From: Escherichia coli
GTDB taxonomy: Bacteria > Pseudomonadota > Gammaproteobacteria > Enterobacterales > Enterobacteriaceae
Assembly: GCF_022846255.1 (NCBI RefSeq)
Contig: NZ_AP025682.1
Reading direction: 5' to 3' (one strand)
DNA: 64,000 nucleotides
Shown here: piece after piece, positions 6,824 to 63,554 of the stretch
How positions within the stretch are numbered: position 1 is the stretch's first letter
How the letters are laid out: every line of letters starts with the position of its first letter
Notes under the pieces: model-generated
Databases searched by the model: none
What the model was told of the DNA's origin: nothing
Seen by the model: the letters and a program-made list of their open reading frames with translations, nothing else
Made by a program: the position numbers and the translations under genes

Positions 6824-7489
6824 TTAACGATTATATTGCTGGTATAACATAGCAACATTTTGTTGCATAATTTCAGCAAGACAATGTCTGCATCCCTCTT
6901 TGTCTTTTACTTTTAACGCGGCGAGTAGTTCATGATAGCTTTCTATACGCTCACGTAATTCCGCTGGGTTAATCGCTTCATAAAGATAATGTAAACCAGG
7001 TCCCATCCTGATCCACAGTTGCTCAATCATTTCACACAGGATGGGCATATTTGAACGATGATAAATCGCTAAGCGAAATAGTCTGTTCGCATTAATGATT
7101 TGTTCCATGTCGCCCTTTTCTTGCGCCTGCTGTAATTTCTCGAGCAATTCCTCGAGTTCCGCCAGGTCTGGCGGGGTGAGGTTTTCAAGAGCCAGAGTAA
7201 CTGCCATTAATTCCAGTTCGTAGCGAATCCGATTGATTTCGTCTAATTGACGTTTCCCCACTTCCGGAACTGTAAATGCTTGCGCTGGTGCGACAGAAAG
7301 CGCATTCACCGAAACCAGACGTAATAATGCTTCACGCACGGGTGTAATACTCATACCTAATTGCTCCGCCAGATTTTTAGTAATCAGGCGTGCGCCAGGT
7401 TTTAATGCGCCAATACTAAGCTGATGTTTCAGGTCGTTCTCAACCTGCATAGTCAAACTGATATGCGGTATTTTTTCCGTTCCAGGCAT
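6824..7489 (-). CDS. mcbR: GntR/FadR-family transcriptional regulator McbR (221 aa)
   Basis: ORF track; N-terminal HTH (MSITPVREALLRL) and FadR-type C-terminal domain. Confidence 0.9.
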   Translation of the reverse strand: MPGTEKIPHISLTMQVENDLKHQLSIGALKPGARLITKNLAEQLGMSITPVREALLRLVSVNALSVAPAQAFTVPEVGKRQLDEINRIRYELELMAVTLALENLTPPDLAELEELLEKLQQAQEKGDMEQIINANRLFRLAIYHRSNMPILCEMIEQLWIRMGPGLHYLYEAINPAELRERIESYHELLAALKVKDKEGCRHCLAEIMQQNVAMLYQQYNR

Positions 7490-7687
7490 GTTATTTCCTT
7501 CACGTGTATTCGTTCTAACTCTGCCGGTATAGCAGAAGTTGTTTACCTGGCGTATGAAGCTGAATAATCATTATCCACTCATCTTTATTGTTATTAGCCG
7601 TCGAACAGTGATGTAGTTAGTTAATTAAAGCTGGAAATAAGATTTTTGCCTGGATTTTTGTGGCGGCTTTACGCCGCCGTCGTATCT

Positions 7688-8725
7688 TTAGTCATCACCC
7701 GCGACGCGAATAACAACTTTACCGAAGTTTTTGCCGTTCAGCAGGCCAATAAACGTCTGTGGGGCGTTCTCCAAACCGTTGGTAACTTGTTCACGATAGT
7801 GAATTTTTCCCTCTTTTACCCACTGCCCCATCTCTTGCTGAAACTCATGGATGCGGTGACCATAATCCTGACTAATAATAAACCCTTGCAAGCGAATGCG
7901 TTTTTTCAGCACCGTTGCCATCAACAGGGGTAAACGATCCGGACCGGGTGGTAGCTCTGTAGCGTTATAGCTGCTCACTAAGCCACAAACGGGAATGCGC
8001 GCAGATGTATTAAGTAATGGTAGCACTGCATCAAATACCTTACCGCCCACGTTTTCATAATAGATATCAATACCTTTTGGGCACGCTTTCGCCAGTTGTT
8101 CGGCAAAATCGTCCGCGTGGTGATCAAGGCAAACATCGAAGCCTAACACCTCGGTAGCATGGCGGCATTTTTCCGCGCCACCGGCTACCCCCACCACTCT
8201 GCAACCTTTAAGTTTGCCGATTTGCCCCACCGTCGCCCCTACTGGTCCTGTCGCCGCCGCAACCACCAGCGTTTCGCCCTCTTTAGGCTGACCGATATCC
8301 AGTAGGCCCATATAAGCAGTAAAGCCTGGCATCCCCAGCACACCCAGCGACCACGATGGATTTTGCGGATGATCGCCAAGTTTCACCAGTTCATCACCAC
8401 TGGATATGTCATAGTCCTGCCATCCACTGTAGCCCAGCACCCAGTCGCCAGGCTGATAATCAGGATGATTCGACTCCACGACACGGCTCACCGTGCCGCC
8501 GACCATCACGCCGCCAATATCAACAGGCGGTGAATAAGATGGCTCATCGCTCATACGTCCACGCATATACGGGTCCAGTGACAAATAAACTGTGCGCAGT
8601 AACACCTGTCCTTCACCCGGTGTGGCGACATCATCTTCTTCAAGACGGAAATTCTCCGGAACCGGTGCGCCATGCGGACGCGAGGCCAGAACCCAACGGC
8701 GGTTACGCTGCTTTTGTTGCCCCAT
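7688..8725 (-). CDS. curA: NADPH-dependent curcumin/dihydrocurcumin reductase (345 aa)
   Basis: ORF track 7688..8818; start placed at MGQQKQRNRR (ATG 8725-8723) with AGGAGAG RBS; medium-chain dehydrogenase fold. Confidence 0.9.
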   Translation of the reverse strand: MGQQKQRNRRWVLASRPHGAPVPENFRLEEDDVATPGEGQVLLRTVYLSLDPYMRGRMSDEPSYSPPVDIGGVMVGGTVSRVVESNHPDYQPGDWVLGYSGWQDYDISSGDELVKLGDHPQNPSWSLGVLGMPGFTAYMGLLDIGQPKEGETLVVAAATGPVGATVGQIGKLKGCRVVGVAGGAEKCRHATEVLGFDVCLDHHADDFAEQLAKACPKGIDIYYENVGGKVFDAVLPLLNTSARIPVCGLVSSYNATELPPGPDRLPLLMATVLKKRIRLQGFIISQDYGHRIHEFQQEMGQWVKEGKIHYREQVTNGLENAPQTFIGLLNGKNFGKVVIRVAGDD

Positions 8726-8905
8726 AATGCTCTCCTGTGCTTTTAGCATGAATCCATCAATAGTAGCAGGCTCACAGGATTGGTTTTGTTTGCAGCCGTC
8801 ACATCCCCTCTGCAACACGCAATAATTTCATAGAGGAATCCGTTGCTTCGGGCTGTTTTCGATAGTATTGATAACATCATCATCATTATTTTATCGAGGC
8901 CAGAC

Positions 8906-21227: not shown

Positions 21228-22403
21228 ATGCGTCTGTTTTCTATTCCTCCACCCACGCTACTGGCGGGGTTTCTGGCGGTATTAATTGGCTACGCCAGTT
21301 CAGCGGCAATAATCTGGCAAGCAGCGATTGTCGCCGGAGCCACCACTGCACAAATCTCTGGCTGGATGACGGCGCTGGGGCTGGCAATGGGCGTCAGTAC
21401 GCTGACTCTGACATTATGGTATCGCGTACCTGTTCTCACCGCATGGTCAACGCCTGGCGCGGCTTTGTTGGTCACCGGATTACAGGGACTAACACTTAAC
21501 GAAGCCATCGGCGTTTTTATTGTCACCAACGTGTTAATAGTCCTCTGCGGCATAACGGGACTCTTTGCTCGTCTGATGCGCATTATTCCGCACTCGCTTG
21601 CGGCGGCAATGCTTGCCGGGATTTTATTACGTTTTGGTTTACAGGCGTTTGCCAGTCTGGATGGTCAATTTACGTTGTGTGGCAGTATGTTGCTGGTATG
21701 GCTGGCAACCAGGGCCGTTGCGCCGCGCTATGCGGTAATTGCCGCGATGATTATTGGGATCGTGATCGTTATCGCGCAAGGTGACGTTGTCACAACTGAT
21801 GTTGTCTTTAAACCCGTTCTCCCCACTTATATTCCCCCTGATTTTTCGTTTGCTCACAGTCTGAGCGTTGCACTCCCCCTTTTTCTGGTGACGATGGCAT
21901 CGCAAAACGCACCGGGTATCGCAGCAATGAAAGCAGCCGGATATTCGGCTCCTGTTTCGCCATTAATTATATTTACTGGATTGCTGGCACTGGTTTTTTC
22001 CCCTTTCGGCGTTTATTCCGTCGGTATTGCGGCAATCACCGCGGCTATTTGCCAAAGCCCGGAAGCGCATCCGGATAAAGATCAACGTTGGCTGGCAGCT
22101 GCCGTTGCAGGCATTTTCTATTTGCTCGCAGGTCTGTTTGGTAGTGCCATTACCGGGATGATGGCTGCCCTGCCCGTAAGTTGGATCCAGATGCTGGCAG
22201 GTCTGGCGCTGTTGAGTACCATTGGCGGCAGTTTGTATCAGGCGCTGCATAATGAGCGTGAGCGCGACGCGGCGGTGGTGGCATTTCTGGTAACGGCAAG
22301 TGGATTGACGCTGGCCGGGATTGGTTCTGCGTTTTGGGGATTAATTGCCGGAGGCGTTTGTTACGTGGTGTTGAATTTAATCGCTGACAGAAACCGATAT
22401 TGA
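21228..22403 (+). CDS. ydcO: BenE-family inner membrane transporter YdcO (391 aa)
   Basis: ORF track 21105..22403; start placed at MRLFSIPPPTLLAG (ATG 21228) with GAGGTG RBS. Confidence 0.88.
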   Translation: MRLFSIPPPTLLAGFLAVLIGYASSAAIIWQAAIVAGATTAQISGWMTALGLAMGVSTLTLTLWYRVPVLTAWSTPGAALLVTGLQGLTLNEAIGVFIVTNVLIVLCGITGLFARLMRIIPHSLAAAMLAGILLRFGLQAFASLDGQFTLCGSMLLVWLATRAVAPRYAVIAAMIIGIVIVIAQGDVVTTDVVFKPVLPTYIPPDFSFAHSLSVALPLFLVTMASQNAPGIAAMKAAGYSAPVSPLIIFTGLLALVFSPFGVYSVGIAAITAAICQSPEAHPDKDQRWLAAAVAGIFYLLAGLFGSAITGMMAALPVSWIQMLAGLALLSTIGGSLYQALHNERERDAAVVAFLVTASGLTLAGIGSAFWGLIAGGVCYVVLNLIADRNRY

Positions 22404-22442
22404 CATCCTCCACGCCCTGAAGGACGTGGATCCCTGCTACGT

Positions 22443-23651
22443 TCAGGCTGTCGCCTGAATCATTTCGGTGGGTTCCTGCTTCAACGGGCGGCCTGACTGC
22501 ACCATCTCTCCACAGGCAAGAACGGCGTGCCCCGCCGCTAAAATGTTACGAGCGCCATTTACATCGGCGTTCGCTGTATATCCACATACCTGGCATCTGA
22601 ATTTACTTTGTGACAGGCGGTTCTCTTTCGCTGTATGACCACAGTACGCGCAACGCTGGCTTGTATACGCTGGCGGAACAGCAAGCACCTGACCGCCACG
22701 CCAGAGCTGCTTGTACTCAAGCTGGCGGCGCATTTCATACCAGCCCTGATCCAGTATCGAACGGTTTAAACCTGATTTTGCCCGGACATTGCGCCCCGGC
22801 TGGCTGACCGTACCCGCTGCTGACTTTGACATGTTGCTGACCTTCAAATCCTCAATGACTATCATTGCGTGGTTTTTGCTGACGGCCGTTGTGACTTTGT
22901 GAAGGTAGTCCCTGCGGATATTTGCGATACAGGAATGCAGTCGCTGTATTTTGCGTTTCTGCTTCTGCCAGTTGTTGCTGAATTTGACCTTGCGGCTTAA
23001 CTGTCGCTGAAGTCTCGCCAGCGTCTTCTGGTTTTTCTGAAAACTGTTTACAGGCTCAAAGACTGTGCCATCTGACAGCGTGGCGAGTTTAGCCACGCCA
23101 GCATCCAGCCCGACCATTGATGCTGAAGGGTGAGCCGGAGTGGATACTTCACTTTCTGTCTGAATACTGATGTACCACTTACCGCAGGACTGGCTGACAG
23201 TGACATTTTTCACAACACCCGTGACCTGACGGCTATTCCGGTAGCGCATCCAGCCCAGTTTCGGCAGAAAAATACGGCTGTTTTCCTGATCGAGCTTAAC
23301 GCCCTGCGGGTAGCGGAATGCATCATTCTGTCCCCGCTTTTTGAATCGGGGAAAAGCAGCCCGCTTCCGGAAGAAGTTTTTGTAAGCCCGCTCAAGGTCT
23401 TTCAGTGACTGTTGCAATGGCTGTGAGGGAGAATCTTTAAGCCATTGCGTTTCAGTGGCGTTTTTCCACTCAACCAGCCAGGAAGCCATTTTCCCGTAAG
23501 GGATGTATTTATTACCGGCCTCATGATTCTCATTCTGAAGCGCCAGAGCACGATTGAAAACGAAACGACATGCGCCTGCGAAGCGCCTCATTTCACACTC
23601 CTGTTGACCACCTGGTCTTAACTGGAATTTAAATGCCTGTAATCGTTTCAC
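22443..23651 (-). CDS. insQ: TnpB (IS605 OrfB-family RuvC-like RNA-guided nuclease), 402 aa, apparently intact
   Basis: ORF track; N-terminal KFQLRP...NRALAL, C-terminal zinc-finger CAYCGH...CQVCG and RuvC-like segments. Confidence 0.9.
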
Positions 23652-23658
23652 AGGTCAA

Positions 23659-24164
23659 ATGATACTTTGGTCTGTGAAAAAAGAAACCGATATCCGGCGT
23701 GGAAGGCATTGTGTTTTCCTGATGCATGTTCAGCTGGTCTTTGTCCCAAATACCGACGCCAGATTTTTGACCATGACGCGACAGAAAAACTACGCACTTA
23801 CTATTCAAATGTATGTGCTGATTTTGAAGCTGAACTGGTTGAAATGGATGGCGAACCAGATCACGTCCATTTGTTAATTAACTATCCTCCCAAACTGGCG
23901 ATATCCAGTCTGGTAAACAGCCTCAAAGGCGTATCGGGTAGGTGACTGCGACGAGATCGACCAGATATTGCAGTCAGGTATTACTACAAAGGCGTTTTGT
24001 GGAGTCCTGGCTATTTTGCCAGTAGCTGCGGAGGTGCGCCAATATCCGTCATCCGCCAATACATTGAACAACAGCAAACACCTGGTCAGGTGGAAAACCG
24101 CGCCTTATATCCCCGCCCTGAAGGACGGGGTTTTACGGCGCACCGGATAAAAAGCGCCATCTAA
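23659..24164 (+). pseudogene. IS200/IS605 Y1 (HUH) transposase TnpA, disrupted
   Basis: Motifs split across frames: ...HVQLVFVP then KYRRQIF...DHVHLL...LKGVSGR, in-frame TGA at 23943-23945, then YYKGVLWSPGYFASSCGGAPISVIRQYIEQQ. Confidence 0.7.
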
Positions 24165-33197: not shown

Positions 33198-34838
33198 TCA
33201 CACCGTAGCGAAACTAACTGGTTCACCCGCTCCGCGAGGTACTGCCGACACGGAATGTTTGTTCAGACGGAATACGTCCACCGCCTCAGTTAATCGTGCA
33301 GCCTGTTCTTCAAGGGACACCGCCGCTGCTGAGGCTTCTTCTACCAGAGAAGCATTCTGTTGCGTCACCTTATCCATTTCAGAAATCGCCTGGCTAACCT
33401 GCGTTATGCCTCTACTTTGTTCATCCGAGGCGGCGGCGATTTCCTGCATGATATGTGTGACACTCGCGACGGCATCAACAATAGTGCTCATGGTTTTCCC
33501 TGCCGTTGCCACCTCATCCGACCCCAGGTCAATTAACCTGACTGATTCACTGATCAAGCCTTCAATCTCTTTCGCCGCCTGAGCGCTGCGGCTTGCGAGT
33601 GTCCGTACTTCGCTGGCGACAACGGCAAATCCACGCCCTTGCTCACCCGCTCGCGCGGCTTCAACGGCAGCATTCAGTGCCAGAATATTCGTCTGGAAAG
33701 CAATACTGTTGATGACGGCGGTGATCTCAGAAATTTTCTTCGAACTCGTGGAGATAGCGCCCATCGTTTTTACTACACCGGAAACCGTCTGCCCGCCATT
33801 GCAGGCTTTAATAGAAGCCTCTTGCGCCAGTTTGCTGGCATGATGCGCGTTATCCGCATTCTGTTTCACCGTCGCAGTGAGTTGCTCCATGCTGGCGGCA
33901 GTTTGTTCAATTGCCGCCGCTTGTTCTTCAGTGCGAGATGAAAGGTCCGCATTGCCAGCGGAAATTTCGCTGGTGCCACGATAAATCTCTTCCGCGCCCT
34001 GTCGAACGGTCCCTACAGTCATCCCCAGTGAATGCTGCATTTGCTGTAAATGACGACTTAAGCGACCGATTTCATTACGACCCGCCGGTTCATCATTCAT
34101 CGTCAGATCGCCACTGGCGATTTTTTCAATCCGTTGTGCGGCATGTTGCAGTGGACGAATGACGATCCGACGTAGCACTATAAATGTTATCAGCGTCATG
34201 ACCAGGGCAAGCACAAACGCGCCAATCATGAACATCCCACCCAGGCGGGTGCGCTGATGGGCCAGTTCCGCCAGTTGGTTGGCTCTGGTGCTACGTATCT
34301 TAACGGCTTTGTTCAAAATATCGGTATAAGCATTATCCAGCGGTCGGATCTGCTCACTTTCATGATTGATAATCGCTTCAAACATGCCATTTTTGGCATA
34401 TTTCAACATCGGTTGCATACCCGTGATATAAGCCTGGAAGCGTTGATTTAATTCAGTGTCGAGGGCTTCATCAGCAGGTGTTTTCACCGACCGATTCTGA
34501 TAAGCACGATAACCTTGCTGCGACTGTTTAATCTCCGATTCGGCTTGCGCAATATTTCGCTTCATTGCTTCCATTTCCGCAATACGACTCGCTGCCCCGG
34601 CCTGAATCATATTGATCCGGGCTGAACGCAAAAAATCTGAACTGTTCGCTAACCCGGTCCGAATCTCAATCTCCGCAGTAACATCACGCTGATCGCGATC
34701 GGCCTGCCAGAGGAAATAGCCAGCCAGAGCAGAACTTAATGCGAATAGAACTAAGATACCGCCAAGAATGCAGGCAAATAACGGAACCAGCCTGATGTGA
34801 TGCAAAAAACCTAATCGCTGTGAGGGAGTTGTATTCAT
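33198..34838 (-). CDS. trg: methyl-accepting chemotaxis protein III (ribose/galactose), 546 aa
   Basis: ORF track; periplasmic sensor, HAMP and highly conserved MCP signalling domain. Confidence 0.93.
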
Positions 34839-35133
34839 TACCGTTGTCTCTCGTCCAGGTTTACTCCTGATAGAAAGTCATCGGCACTTGACGGTAATTA
34901 CTTATGACCAAAAACCTCTTTGCGTCACATTTTTACAACAATTATGGCAGAGAAGAATAATGCCATTGGAATGAAGAGAGTAACGAATGATTAAACTGGC
35001 AAACCCGAATGACGAAAAATTCTGGAAAACAGCACGCAATTTCGTCAGGTGATTATTTTCGTCCCTAAGGAAACCACATAGGATGCTCACGGGTGCCTGA
35101 GACTTTCTGTTTTCAGGCTAACCGGGAATCAGA

Positions 35134-35178
35134 AAGACGAAGGCCCCGACCGATATTTCTATCAACCGAGGCCAACGA

Positions 35179-35189
<11 letters not shown>
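35134..35189 (-). ncRNA. sokB: SokB antisense RNA of the hokB/mokB type I toxin locus (position approximate)
   Basis: Placed antisense across the mokB start by analogy with hok/sok loci and remembered K-12 layout; ends not determined from sequence. Confidence 0.3.
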
Positions 35190-35386
<197 letters not shown>

Positions 35387-35801: not shown

Positions 35802-35865
35802 CTTCCGATGTAGGCCCGTATTCTTCGCCTGTACCACGGGTCGGTTTTAGTACAGGCGTTTTCTT
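35802..35865 (+). ncRNA. rydC: RydC Hfq-dependent small RNA
   Basis: CTTCCGATGTAGGCCCGTATTCTTCGCCTGTACCACGGGTCGGTTTTAGTACAGGCGTTTTCTT matches the RydC pseudoknot sRNA; TATAAT -10 box at 35791-35796; lies between ydcA and cybB. Confidence 0.85.
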
Positions 35866-35875
35866 TAAATATCCT

Positions 35876-36406
35876 TCAGGAACGTTTACGCGGCATCATG
35901 CGTAGAAGTGTGTTGTCCTTCCAGAAATAGTGGTGTGCCAGTGCAGCCGCAGCGTGCAACCCGATGACAAAATATCCCAGATTCGCCAGCGTTTCATGCC
36001 ACGACTTTAAGCTATCAACCCGTTCGAAATTGGCCTCTGAAGCGTAAGGCATCGTCAAACCAAACGCAAACCACGGGTTGCCCCGGTTATACATCATCAC
36101 CAAACCAATCACTGGCAGCGCAATAAACAGGAGATAAATCACCAAATGGCCCAAATGCGCCAGTCCCGTCATCATCGGTTTTGGCTTAGGTATAATCGGC
36201 GGGGTTGGGCATTTCAGCCTTAACAAAAGACGAACCACCATCAGTACGAGAATTGAGATGCCACAGGAAACATGAATCATGTTGATGAGGGGCCGATCGC
36301 TACGTGGGAAGAAACCACGAAACTCCATTGCGCAATACGCTACGATAACCAGCAAAAAGACCAGCCAGTGAATGCTGATTTGTAACCTTGAGTATTTATT
36401 TCCCAT
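35876..36406 (-). CDS. cybB: cytochrome b561 (176 aa)
   Basis: ORF track 35876..36442; start placed at M(G/E)NKYSRLQISIHWLVFLL; conserved His ligands. Confidence 0.9.
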   Translation of the reverse strand: MGNKYSRLQISIHWLVFLLVIVAYCAMEFRGFFPRSDRPLINMIHVSCGISILVLMVVRLLLRLKCPTPPIIPKPKPMMTGLAHLGHLVIYLLFIALPVIGLVMMYNRGNPWFAFGLTMPYASEANFERVDSLKSWHETLANLGYFVIGLHAAAALAHHYFWKDNTLLRMMPRKRS

Positions 36407-36594
36407 AACATTTCCTGCTTTAACATAATTTGCCGTTAACATAACGGGCTTTTCTTAAAATTTCATTAAATATTGTTCACCTGTTTTCAGTACGTTACGT
36501 TTCGCTGCAAGAATGTAGATTGCCCATCCCGCCATCCTGGTCTAAGCCTGGAAAGGATCAATTTTCATCCGAACGTTCCTGACAGGAGAAGACC

Positions 36595-37596
36595 ATGAGT
36601 AAAGTTGGTATTAATGGTTTTGGTCGTATCGGTCGACTGGTGTTGCGTCGATTACTTGAAGTCAAAAGCAACATAGACGTTGTCGCTATTAATGATCTCA
36701 CTTCCCCAAAAATTCTCGCCTACCTGCTGAAACATGATTCAAACTACGGACCGTTCCCCTGGAGCGTTGATTATACGGAAGATTCACTTATCGTTGATGG
36801 GAAAAGTATCGCGGTTTACGCCGAAAAAGAGGCTAAAAATATTCCGTGGAAAGCGAAAGGCGCAGAAATCATTGTCGAATGTACAGGCTTTTATACCTCC
36901 GCCGAGAAATCGCAGGCGCATCTTGATGCTGGCGCGAAGAAGGTGTTGATTTCCGCCCCTGCCGGTGAAATGAAAACCATCGTTTATAACGTCAATGACG
37001 ACACTCTGGATGGCAACGACACCATTGTTTCCGTGGCGTCATGCACCACTAACTGCCTTGCGCCGATGGCCAAAGCCTTGCATGACAGTTTCGGGATAGA
37101 AGTCGGCACGATGACAACCATTCATGCCTATACCGGCACCCAGTCACTGGTGGATGGCCCACGTGGTAAAGATTTACGTGCTTCACGCGCAGCGGCAGAA
37201 AATATCATTCCCCACACTACGGGGGCGGCAAAAGCCATTGGTCTGGTGATCCCGGAACTGAGCGGCAAACTGAAAGGTCATGCGCAACGCGTGCCGGTGA
37301 AAACAGGTTCGGTCACTGAACTGGTGTCGATTCTCGGAAAAAAAGTGACTGCCGAAGAGGTGAACAACGCGCTTAAAAAGGCGACAAACAATAACGAGTC
37401 ATTTGGTTATACTGATGAAGAAATAGTCTCTTCCGATATCATTGGCAGCCATTTCGGTTCGGTGTTTGATGCCACGCAAACGGAAATTACCGCCGTGGGC
37501 GATTTACAACTGGTGAAAACGGTCGCCTGGTACGATAACGAATATGGCTTCGTCACACAGCTTATTCGCACCCTCGAAAAATTCGCTAAACTCTGA
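36595..37596 (+). CDS. gapC: glyceraldehyde-3-phosphate dehydrogenase C, intact (333 aa)
   Basis: ORF track; uninterrupted GAPDH with [12 protein letters not shown] motif and catalytic [10 protein letters not shown]. Confidence 0.92.
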
Positions 37597-37637
37597 CGCG
37601 CACAGGCGGAGGAAAAAACCTCCGCCTCTTTCACTCA

Positions 37638-39077
37638 TTACGACTGTAAATAAACCACCTGGGTCTGCAGATATTCATGCAAGCCATGTTTACCATCTGC
37701 GCCGCCAATACCGGATTTACGCCATCCAGCGTGGAAGCCTTGCATAGCTTCGAAGTTTTCACGGTTGATGTAAGTTTCACCAAACTTCAGCCCTTTAATG
37801 GCTTTCATCGCGACGTTCAGATTTTGGGTATAGATTGATGAGGTCAGGCCGTAATCACTGTCATTAGCCATTGAGATAGCCTCTTCCAGCGTGTCAAATG
37901 CGACCACCGGCAGAACCGGGCCAAAGGTTTCCTCATGCATAATCGACATTTCCTGGCGAACATCCAGCAGCAATGTCGGCGGATAATAATATCCTTTCCC
38001 CTCTACCGCTTTGCCACCCAACGCCACTCTCGCCCCTTCTTCTACTGCGCGCGCCACTTTTTGCTCAACCCTTTCCAGCGCCGCGGCGTTAATCAACGGT
38101 CCCATCGCAATGTCGTTGCGTTCAGCAGGGTTACCAAATTGAACCGCCTGCATCGCTTCACCCAGCCGATTGACGAACTGATCATAAATGCTTTTCTGTA
38201 CATAAACACGTTCTGCACAGTTACACACTTGCCCACTATTAATGACGCGTGAATCAACGATGGCTTTGACTGCCAGTTCAAGATCGGCATCGTCCATTAC
38301 GATAGCCGGTGCTTTACCCCCCAATTCCAGGCACACTTTGGTGATGTTTTTCGCCGCAGTCGCCATAATCTTTTCACCTGCAGAGACGCTGCCTGTCATA
38401 CTGACCATTGCGACCTTTGGGTTACCCGCCAGTTCTTGCCCAACGGTTTCACCACGCCCGAGTACAAGGTTAAACACGCCGCGCGGAAGGCCTATTTCAT
38501 CAACGATTTTGGCGAATGCAATCGCATTGTTTGGCGTAAATTCACTGGGTTTAATGACGATGGTATTACCGGTCAAAAGAGCGGGAGCCATTTTGCGGGC
38601 AATGAGGAAGAACGGAAAGTTCCACGGCAGAATGCCGGTAGTCACGCCAAGCGCACGTTTAAACAGAAGAATATTTTCTCCTGGACGATCGCTTTGAATA
38701 ATCTCGCCCTCGTAACGCCGTGCCCACTCCGCCATATAATCGATATAGTCCGCAGTAAAAGCCACTTCGACTTCAGCCAACTGCTGGATCTTGCCCCCTT
38801 CTTCGACAATCAGCGCACTGATTTCACTGGCACGTTCCCGGATCCCGGCGGAGATTTTGCGCAACCAACTGGCGCGTTCAATAGCAGGCAACGCTTCCCA
38901 TTCTGGTTGTGCACGTTCTGCTGCATCGATTGCCTTACGGGCATCCTCGGCCTGACCATCGGGAATGCGGGAAATGACAGCCTCTGTAGCAGGGTTTTCC
39001 ACATCAATCCATGCGTCTCCACGCCAGGTAACAAACTGTCCATCGATATACATAGGATGTTGAACGGGTACTGACAT
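37638..39077 (-). CDS. aldA: lactaldehyde dehydrogenase (479 aa)
   Basis: ORF track; aldehyde dehydrogenase family. Confidence 0.93.
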   Translation of the reverse strand: MSVPVQHPMYIDGQFVTWRGDAWIDVENPATEAVISRIPDGQAEDARKAIDAAERAQPEWEALPAIERASWLRKISAGIRERASEISALIVEEGGKIQQLAEVEVAFTADYIDYMAEWARRYEGEIIQSDRPGENILLFKRALGVTTGILPWNFPFFLIARKMAPALLTGNTIVIKPSEFTPNNAIAFAKIVDEIGLPRGVFNLVLGRGETVGQELAGNPKVAMVSMTGSVSAGEKIMATAAKNITKVCLELGGKAPAIVMDDADLELAVKAIVDSRVINSGQVCNCAERVYVQKSIYDQFVNRLGEAMQAVQFGNPAERNDIAMGPLINAAALERVEQKVARAVEEGARVALGGKAVEGKGYYYPPTLLLDVRQEMSIMHEETFGPVLPVVAFDTLEEAISMANDSDYGLTSSIYTQNLNVAMKAIKGLKFGETYINRENFEAMQGFHAGWRKSGIGGADGKHGLHEYLQTQVVYLQS

Positions 39078-46162: not shown

Positions 46163-46783
46163 CTAAAAATTAGAACGTTCAGCATCTGGACGTGACTGTT
46201 TCGGTCGCAGATTCTCATCAAATACCAGACGCTGCCTGCCAGGTTCAACTTCCCGCAATGGCTCGACTTGATGCAACGTCTGCTTACAACGTGTCACCAG
46301 CACCTGATACTCATGCGTGCCCTGCTTTTTCCATGCCAGCTCCTGCTCACTAAGTTCACGAATCGCTTTTGCCGGGCTGCTGACAATCAGATAATTAGCA
46401 GGCATTTCTGCTTTGGCTTTCACAAATGCGGATGCGCCAACAATACTGTTCTCACCAATCACCGCACCGTCCATCACTACCGCGTTCATTCCCACTAACG
46501 CATTGCGGCGGATAATGCAGCCGTGAAGGATAGCGCTATGACCAATATGCCCATCTTCTTCAACGACAGTATCCTGCCCGGGAAAGCCGGGCATAACGCA
46601 ATTATCCTGAATGTTCGCGCCATCTTTCACCACGATACGACTAAAATCACCTCGCAGGCTGGCATTTGGTCCAACGTAAACGCCCTTGCCGAGAATAACA
46701 TCGCCGATCAATACCGCTGTCGGATGAACAAAACTCTCTTCTGTTACAATCGGAGTCAGACCGTCTATCTGATAAATTGGCAT
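46163..46783 (-). CDS. paaY: hexapeptide-repeat thioesterase / gamma-carbonic-anhydrase-like protein, PaaY-type (206 aa)
   Basis: ORF track; [11 protein letters not shown]... with left-handed beta-helix repeats; GGAGG RBS; the rest of the paa operon is absent from this window. Confidence 0.75.
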
Positions 46784-46818
46784 AACACCTCCTGTTCAAT
46801 ATTCAAACCGCCAAAACG

Positions 46819-47124
46819 TTGAAAATACAGGCTACCCGGCGAAGGCTGCTCACCGACCGAGGTTTCACCTTTTTCACTAACGAACGCTACAGCAGCAGGC
46901 GCTACGCGCTGATAAAATTTGCCGATAAAGGTTTGGTGGTCGCGCAATATATTCGTAACCGTCGTCTCGATTTTTGTGCAGATGCGATTCGCCATGCCGC
47001 AGATGATGAAAAACTGGCAGGCATTGGCTTTCATTGGGGATTTTCCGACCAGAGTCATTTTTCAACGGTATTTAAACAACGCTTTGGGATGACGCCAGGC
47101 GAGAATCGGCGTAAATTCCGCTAA
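46819..47124 (+). pseudogene. feaR: AraC-family regulator, C-terminal HTH fragment (likely feaR remnant)
   Basis: 101-codon ORF ending in an AraC-type second HTH (GFHWGFSDQSHFSTVFKQRFGMTPGENRRKF); no N-terminal domain; adjacent to ydbL as feaR is in K-12. Confidence 0.5.
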
Positions 47125-56242: not shown

Positions 56243-56270
56243 ATGCTCTGGATAAGGATCATCCAATTCT

Positions 56271-56380
56271 AAAAAAAAGCCCGGACGACTGTTCGGGCTT
56301 GTCTTCTTATATGTTGGAAAATCAGTAGCAATGCAATGGCCCAACAGAAAATAAAATCTGTGACAATAAAGGCATATAAC
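56271..56380 (-). ncRNA. micC: MicC Hfq-dependent small RNA (ompC/ompD repressor)
   Basis: Minus strand reads GTTATATGCCTTTATTGTCACAGATTTTATTTTCTGTTGGGCCATTGCATTGC...AGCCCGAACAGTCGTCCGGGCTTTTTTTT; divergent from ompN as in K-12. Confidence 0.85.
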
Positions 56381-56607
56381 CCGCGCAGAATAACGTATAG
56401 AAAATTAAAAGTATAATTTTTATTTTGTATGTGTTATCTCCAATACATTCACCAGACTTATTATCATTTCTGAAGAATTATTTAATTAAGGTTTTACTTA
56501 AGGCGTAACAAATGATATTTATCGGCTAACTGAACTTCTCCTTTAGGATGTTTTCACTCCCCAAAATGGGGATGAAAGGCAAATAAAATAACTAAAGGAT
56601 TTATTCA

Positions 56608-63280: not shown

Positions 63281-63554
63281 ATTTCCCTCCGGTCATTGGG
63301 TGGACTCTTAAAGGGTAGACGCTGATAAATAACAGGCAAAAAAAAGCCGACTCATCAAAGTCGGCGTCGTACGAATCAATTGTGCTATGCAGTAATTCAA
63401 AAAAGGAAGTAAGACAATATGGAGCGCAACGCCCATCGCTTGACGTTGCATTCACCTGCAAGAGAGATATTGCCCTGAATGGGTAGAGAGTTTATTGACT
63501 TCGCTCAAACTTTACGGCGTTTTTGTATACAGATAGCCGGAAAAATTGCTTTTG

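Follow-up and report, generated by a model that had tools for sequence, protein, structure and literature searches.

GapA (b1779 in MG1655) is the main glycolytic GAPDH of Escherichia coli. GapC is of the same family and fold but is encoded at another chromosomal locus, and alignment of the two proteins gives 47.4% identity (155 of 327 aligned residues), with a 10-residue active-site motif and a 13-residue motif in common. In 1990, Doolittle et al. reportedly regarded GapA as the 'eukaryote-like' enzyme and GapC as the typical bacterial type. The erythrose-4-phosphate dehydrogenase Epd (GapB) of E. coli belongs to the same GAPDH superfamily. The K-12 copy of gapC (b4493, formerly gapC_1/gapC_2, b1416/b1417) is annotated in MG1655 as a pseudogene of 1,001 bp, and the usual wording is that laboratory strains 'accumulated' mutations in this gene (PMC2949598). 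According to passages in two papers that both cite Espinosa-Urgel and Kolter 1998 (PMC2949598, PMC1796617), fresh water is the preferred setting for gapC expression and environmental isolates have intact genes. The gene also serves as an E. coli species marker in qPCR, with positive results for 258 of 261 culture-positive urines, and the GapC protein of O157:H7 is available as UniProt entry P58072 (PMC10614358).

Biochemical and structural information comes from EcGAPDH1, which was crystallised with NAD, G3P and BPG (PMC8615399). The wild type is an active NAD+-dependent enzyme with a Km of 0.73 mM for D-G3P. The C150A mutant was inactive and in the H177A mutant activity was down about 8,000-fold, while contacts with NAD+ are made by Arg11, Ile12, Asp34, Ser120 and Asn315 (PMC8615399). 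That study uses neither the name gapC nor the name of a source strain, and the equation of EcGAPDH1 with GapC follows from our sequence comparison (330 of 333 residues identical).

The window examined here, by which we mean the whole analysed stretch of 64,000 nucleotides, carries at positions 36595–37596 on the plus strand a single open reading frame of 333 codons, with an ATG start and a TGA stop. Both the ORF listing and a separate translation gave this result, and the terminal stop is the only one in the translated frame. The probability that a frame of 333 codons stays open by chance is (61/64)^333, or about 1e-7, so this is not a chance ORF. A preliminary description of the DNA had called the feature an intact 333-codon gapC gene with GAPDH catalytic and NAD-binding motifs, and its coordinates, length and integrity proved exact. 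Taking all observations together, the frame is almost certainly an intact allele of E. coli gapC that encodes a type I GAPDH, which is the best explanation of the data as a whole.

The position on the chromosome agrees with this assignment. To the left lies the divergent gene cybB (cytochrome b561 / superoxide oxidase, 35876–36406, minus strand; NF008566, 376.9 bits) and to the right the convergent gene aldA (aldehyde dehydrogenase A, 37638–39077, minus strand; NF007497, 1000 bits), which is intact and encodes 479 amino acids. Both profile scores are far above the equivalog cutoffs, and the assignments match the annotation in relatives. The same gene order is found in MG1655 and in every genome that was sampled. 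A 1.3-kb query covering gapC found a match in 5,417 of 5,426 complete E. coli genomes, in 5,406 of them at a coverage of at least 80%. Nearly every genome had a single match, which coincided with annotated cybB, 'gap' and aldA genes, and identity to the sampled full-length matches ranged from 96.2 to 99.9%. The matches in 5,417 of the 5,426 genomes, with this gene arrangement, establish that the window comes from the E. coli chromosome and includes the gapC locus, and detection of the gene in 258 of 261 urines by qPCR fits such a near-universal presence. Together with the end-to-end alignment with b4493 described below, the location between cybB and aldA confirms the gene name that had been proposed.

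A spacer of 41 bp separates gapC from the convergent aldA. It contains a hairpin at 37604–37627 with a G+C-rich stem of 9 bp and an AAAAAA loop, for which a folding energy of −18.3 kcal/mol was calculated (z = −4.09, with none of 200 shuffled sequences folding as well). The hairpin is identical in K-12 and is likely to serve as a shared terminator of gapC and aldA, as judged from sequence and predicted fold. A terminator consensus scan did not list the 37604–37627 hairpin, because its T-tract (TCTTTC) is weak. At the other end of the gene, a Shine–Dalgarno sequence AGGAG at 36584–36588 on the plus strand, 6 nt before the ATG and conserved in K-12, is a good ribosome-binding site for gapC.

The family assignment rests on profile scores and on conserved residues. 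The type I GAPDH equivalog TIGR01534 matches residues 3–325 over profile positions 1–330 of 330, with 447.7 bits against a cutoff of 367.2. Both Pfam GAPDH domains (PF00044 and PF02800) are present, with Gp_dh_N scoring 123.1 bits over residues 3–102 and Gp_dh_C 196.1 bits over residues 155–313. A motif search located the Rossmann-fold dinucleotide-binding motif GFGRIG at codons 8–13 (36616–36633, plus strand), the acidic residue Asp34 that specifies NAD+, the segment ASCTTNCL at 148–155 with the catalytic Cys150 (TGC, 37042–37044, plus strand), the catalytic His177 (CAT, 37123–37125, plus strand) and WYDNE at 312. Thr180, Thr182 and Arg232 are also in place. Thus, the signatures of a type I GAPDH, a GxGxxG motif and a SCTTNC cysteine followed by a histidine some 27 residues on, are found in a protein that has both domains and passes the curated cutoff. 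GFGRIG, D34, C150, H177, T180, T182 and R232 have counterparts among the NAD+-, G3P- and phosphate-binding residues of the EcGAPDH1 structures. The catalytic and cofactor-binding motifs that had been noticed from the sequence are therefore real.

Other members of the superfamily differ in substrate, cofactor or genetic context, and it can be considered that the ORF encodes an Epd/GapB-like enzyme, a GAPDH coupled to ArsJ in arsenate resistance, or an NADP-dependent paralogue. The scores against the corresponding models are significant, at 277.8 bits for TIGR01532 and 281.2 bits for NF010058 (both Epd/GapB models of erythrose-4-phosphate dehydrogenase) and 306.2 bits for the ArsJ-associated model NF033735, which is expected of any superfamily member. 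However, they are far below the respective cutoffs of 530.55, 539 and 450, and of these models and TIGR01534 only the latter is passed. The GapA-type model NF011954 also fails (300.8 bits, cutoff 662). Furthermore, the adjacent genes are cybB and aldA and not arsJ, Asp34 is present, and EcGAPDH1, at 99% identity, turns over G3P with NAD+ (PMC8615399). With scores so far under the curated thresholds and with the kinetics reported for EcGAPDH1, the Epd-like, ArsJ-linked and NADP-dependent readings were rejected, and we consider a different substrate or cofactor extremely unlikely.

A search of the PDB returned EcGAPDH1 ('type 1 GAPDH', PDB 7C5F) as the top match among solved structures. EcGAPDH1 and GapC (WP_000048688.1; common allele WP_000048667.1; PDB 7C5F–7C5R) represent the same gene and locus and share C150 and H177. 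The window protein is identical to RefSeq WP_000048688.1, which is annotated in strain 2547. At the DNA level the closest allele is that of strain MS20657, and a single residue (D68N) separates its product from the window protein. From the commonest allele and the crystallised sequence the window protein is distinguished by Tyr60, Lys262 and Asn265 (substitutions Y60F, K262Q and N265T). By analogy with EcGAPDH1 in the literature, the window GapC is expected to be active with G3P and NAD+. An intact gapC in E. coli other than K-12 is already known; the protein is in RefSeq and has in essence been crystallised.

Alignment with gapC of MG1655 is collinear from end to end, with 23 differences over 1,002 nt (97.7% identity). 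Two of the changes disable the K-12 gene. The first is an A to T change at window position 36709, which converts codon 39 from AAA (Lys) to TAA, and the second is loss of one A from the run of seven at 37338–37344, in the region of codons 248–250, which leaves A6 and causes a frameshift. The window has AAA at 36709–36711 and A7 at 37338–37344, both on the plus strand, and is in this respect unlike the K-12 gene, with which it is otherwise orthologous, flanked by the same genes and followed by the same hairpin. The statement that gapC is a pseudogene in K-12, made in the preliminary description, is thus in order: MG1655 is annotated accordingly, both lesions could be located, and in the K-12 derivative Origami2 the gene is flagged by PGAP as 'frameshifted; internal stop'. 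Realignment of the window to the K-12 pseudogene brought to light no other lesion, neither a stop nor a frameshift, in the window.

The frameshift site is a homopolymer (A7 versus A6) and hence a classic spot for sequencing errors, so that the apparent integrity could in principle reflect a miscall or assembly artefact in a strain that truly carries a pseudogene. Yet the independent TAA at codon 39 is absent from the window as well, and there are 21 further differences from K-12. Moreover, intact alleles of independently sequenced genomes are only 5 nt (strain 2547) or 1 nt (MS20657) away, and a 57-mer spanning the intact codon 39 is found exactly in 3,222 genomes. With two independent lesions both absent and near-identical intact alleles in other genomes, an artefact was rejected as an explanation; its probability is negligible.

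The differences from K-12 are unevenly distributed. Seven of the 23 are packed in 24 bp at 37365–37388 (codons 257–265), and the sampled alleles have K, Q or N at codon 262, which points to a short hypervariable or recombined stretch that lies apart from the catalytic residues.

The frequency of intact and broken alleles was examined over the 5,426 complete genomes. The window version of the codon-39 57-mer has exact matches in 3,222 of these and the K-12 version with TAA in 1,152, while a 37-mer with the K-12 A6 frameshift matched about 1,050 genomes. The placement of the A6 probe keeps A7 alleles from seeding hits, and allele frequencies are based on the A6 count, the codon-39 probes and direct sampling. 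The stop count exceeds the frameshift count by about 100 genomes (1,152 and about 1,050), which could be due to SNPs in the 37-mer or to genomes that have only the stop. From these numbers, lesions of the K-12 type are present in roughly 20% of complete genomes.

For direct sampling, 18 genomes were taken at even spacing down the similarity ranking, and the integrity of the fetched alleles was rechecked by translation. An intact 333-codon gapC was present in 15. The K-12-type lesion pair was found in two, Origami2 and a Korean urine isolate, and in the remaining one gapC and aldA are truncated by IS1. In this strain, SCPM-O-B-7615 (NZ_CP144926.1), IS1A has taken the place of the last four fifths of gapC and of the 3′ end of aldA, and the insertion is an independent route to gapC loss. 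We conclude that roughly four in five E. coli have an intact gapC. The earlier remark on its integrity in many other strains thereby finds support in the sampled genomes, the probe counts (3,222 versus 1,152) and the literature (PMC2949598). Matches to the K-12-type probes, among those listed, are mostly human clinical isolates. The K-12 lesions are thus a natural lineage variant and not a product of laboratory domestication, which modestly corrects the wording that mutations 'accumulated' in laboratory strains (PMC2949598). Because about 20% of complete genomes have the K-12-type loss and one genome has an IS1 loss, gapC must be dispensable, at least in some lineages.

An intact frame may still be cryptic, and it should be considered that gapC in the window is effectively silent and decaying towards the pseudogene state seen in K-12. 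At least two independent losses have occurred, by the K-12-type lesions (about 1,050–1,152 genomes) and by the IS1 truncation. Proteomes of EHEC show abundant GapA and do not mention GapC, but since the paper names GapA alone this is evidence neither for nor against GapC protein. Also, a strong sigma-70 promoter was not recognised: in the consensus scan for gapC, one weak sigma-70-like site was found (36400–36429), against 2.1 expected by chance.

The pattern of variation among intact alleles points the other way. Pairwise comparison of 16 intact alleles, which diverge by up to 36 nt (about 3.6%), gave a mean dS of 0.0835, a dN of 0.0039 and a dN/dS of 0.047. Of the 80 segregating sites, 67 are at third codon positions, with 10 and 3 at first and second positions. 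This is incompatible with long-term neutrality; gapC evolved under strong purifying selection and has the signature of a functional coding gene rather than that of a silent relic. There are also indications of transcription. The divergent cybB/gapC intergenic region (36407–36594, 188 bp), the presumed promoter region, is identical to K-12 at 179 of 188 positions. In K-12, where gapC itself is a pseudogene, this region has a ChIP-seq peak of sigma-S RNA polymerase (PMC4447067), and RpoS-dependent gapC transcripts were found that are up in slow-growing PTS− strains (PMC2759082). Expression in specific environments is mentioned in the part of the literature cited above (PMC2949598). On balance, we regard a cryptic gene as improbable and gapC in the window as most probably functional.

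If the enzyme works like EcGAPDH1, it would oxidise and phosphorylate D-glyceraldehyde-3-phosphate to 1,3-bisphosphoglycerate. In this reaction a thioacyl intermediate would form on Cys150, with His177 acting as the base. In the cell GapC may function as a secondary isozyme beside the main enzyme GapA. Its transcription probably starts from the cybB–gapC intergenic region and is under RpoS, slow-growth or environmental conditions.

Comparison of the rest of the window with the strains that have the closest gapC alleles revealed several further differences. Strain 2547 shares its GapC protein with the window and is collinear with it at 97–99% identity apart from a few indels. One of these is a segment of 1.75 kb (22399–24147) between ydcL and ydcO, which is missing in strain 2547 and contains an ORF for a TnpB-family RNA-guided endonuclease (22443–23651, minus strand, 402 amino acids; NF040570, 381.7 bits). 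The segment is at what we take to be the IS609 insQ/ydcM position of K-12. At 6824–8818 on the minus strand the window has an intact GntR-family regulator (PRK11414 equivalog, 221 amino acids) and a CurA-type NADPH curcumin reductase (an ORF of 376 amino acids), where strain 2547 has gene remnants over a stretch of 1.8 kb. The paaY gene is intact and stands alone at 46163–46783 (206 amino acids; TIGR02287, 364 bits), and no paaA–K cluster lies between the pdxI and ydbL sides of this part of the window (46163–46918). A gene of 8.5 kb for a 'hypothetical protein', which is located at the paaY site in strain 2547, is absent from the window.

Closer to gapC, the methyl-accepting chemotaxis gene trg (about 33198–34840, minus strand) appears full length in the window, in an open frame of 559 codons. 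A deletion of some 1.3 kb has removed the trg N-terminus in both MS20657 and 2547, and in MS20657 hokB is truncated too. The aldA gene of MS20657 (NZ_CP082077.1) is flagged as frameshifted, as opposed to the intact 479 codons in the window. Four small RNAs were found at their expected places, each at full length and at the Rfam gathering score: sok, the sokB antitoxin RNA of hokB (35091–35242, plus strand), RydC (35802–35865, plus strand), MicC (56263–56383, minus strand) and FnrS (63342–63459, minus strand).

Roughly 20% of the genomes may share one old lesion pair, and purifying selection on the other alleles is strong. One can tentatively suggest, as a possibility that we consider rather doubtful, that the split between intact and broken alleles is a lineage- or niche-linked polymorphism kept by selection. 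GapC would then be a condition-specific enzyme (RpoS, starvation, fresh water), of importance outside the gut and unnecessary to the lineage of K-12, and the window allele with Y60, K262 and N265 would be a functional variant of an environmental isozyme.

For the source strain, the annotation should read a functional second GAPDH (GapC) and not the K-12 pseudogene. Metabolic models and knock-out designs that are derived from K-12, for example those in which gapA is assumed to be essential, would miss GapC. The wider relevance is modest: the K-12 lesions occur naturally in about a fifth of complete genomes, and elsewhere in the species the gene is strongly conserved.
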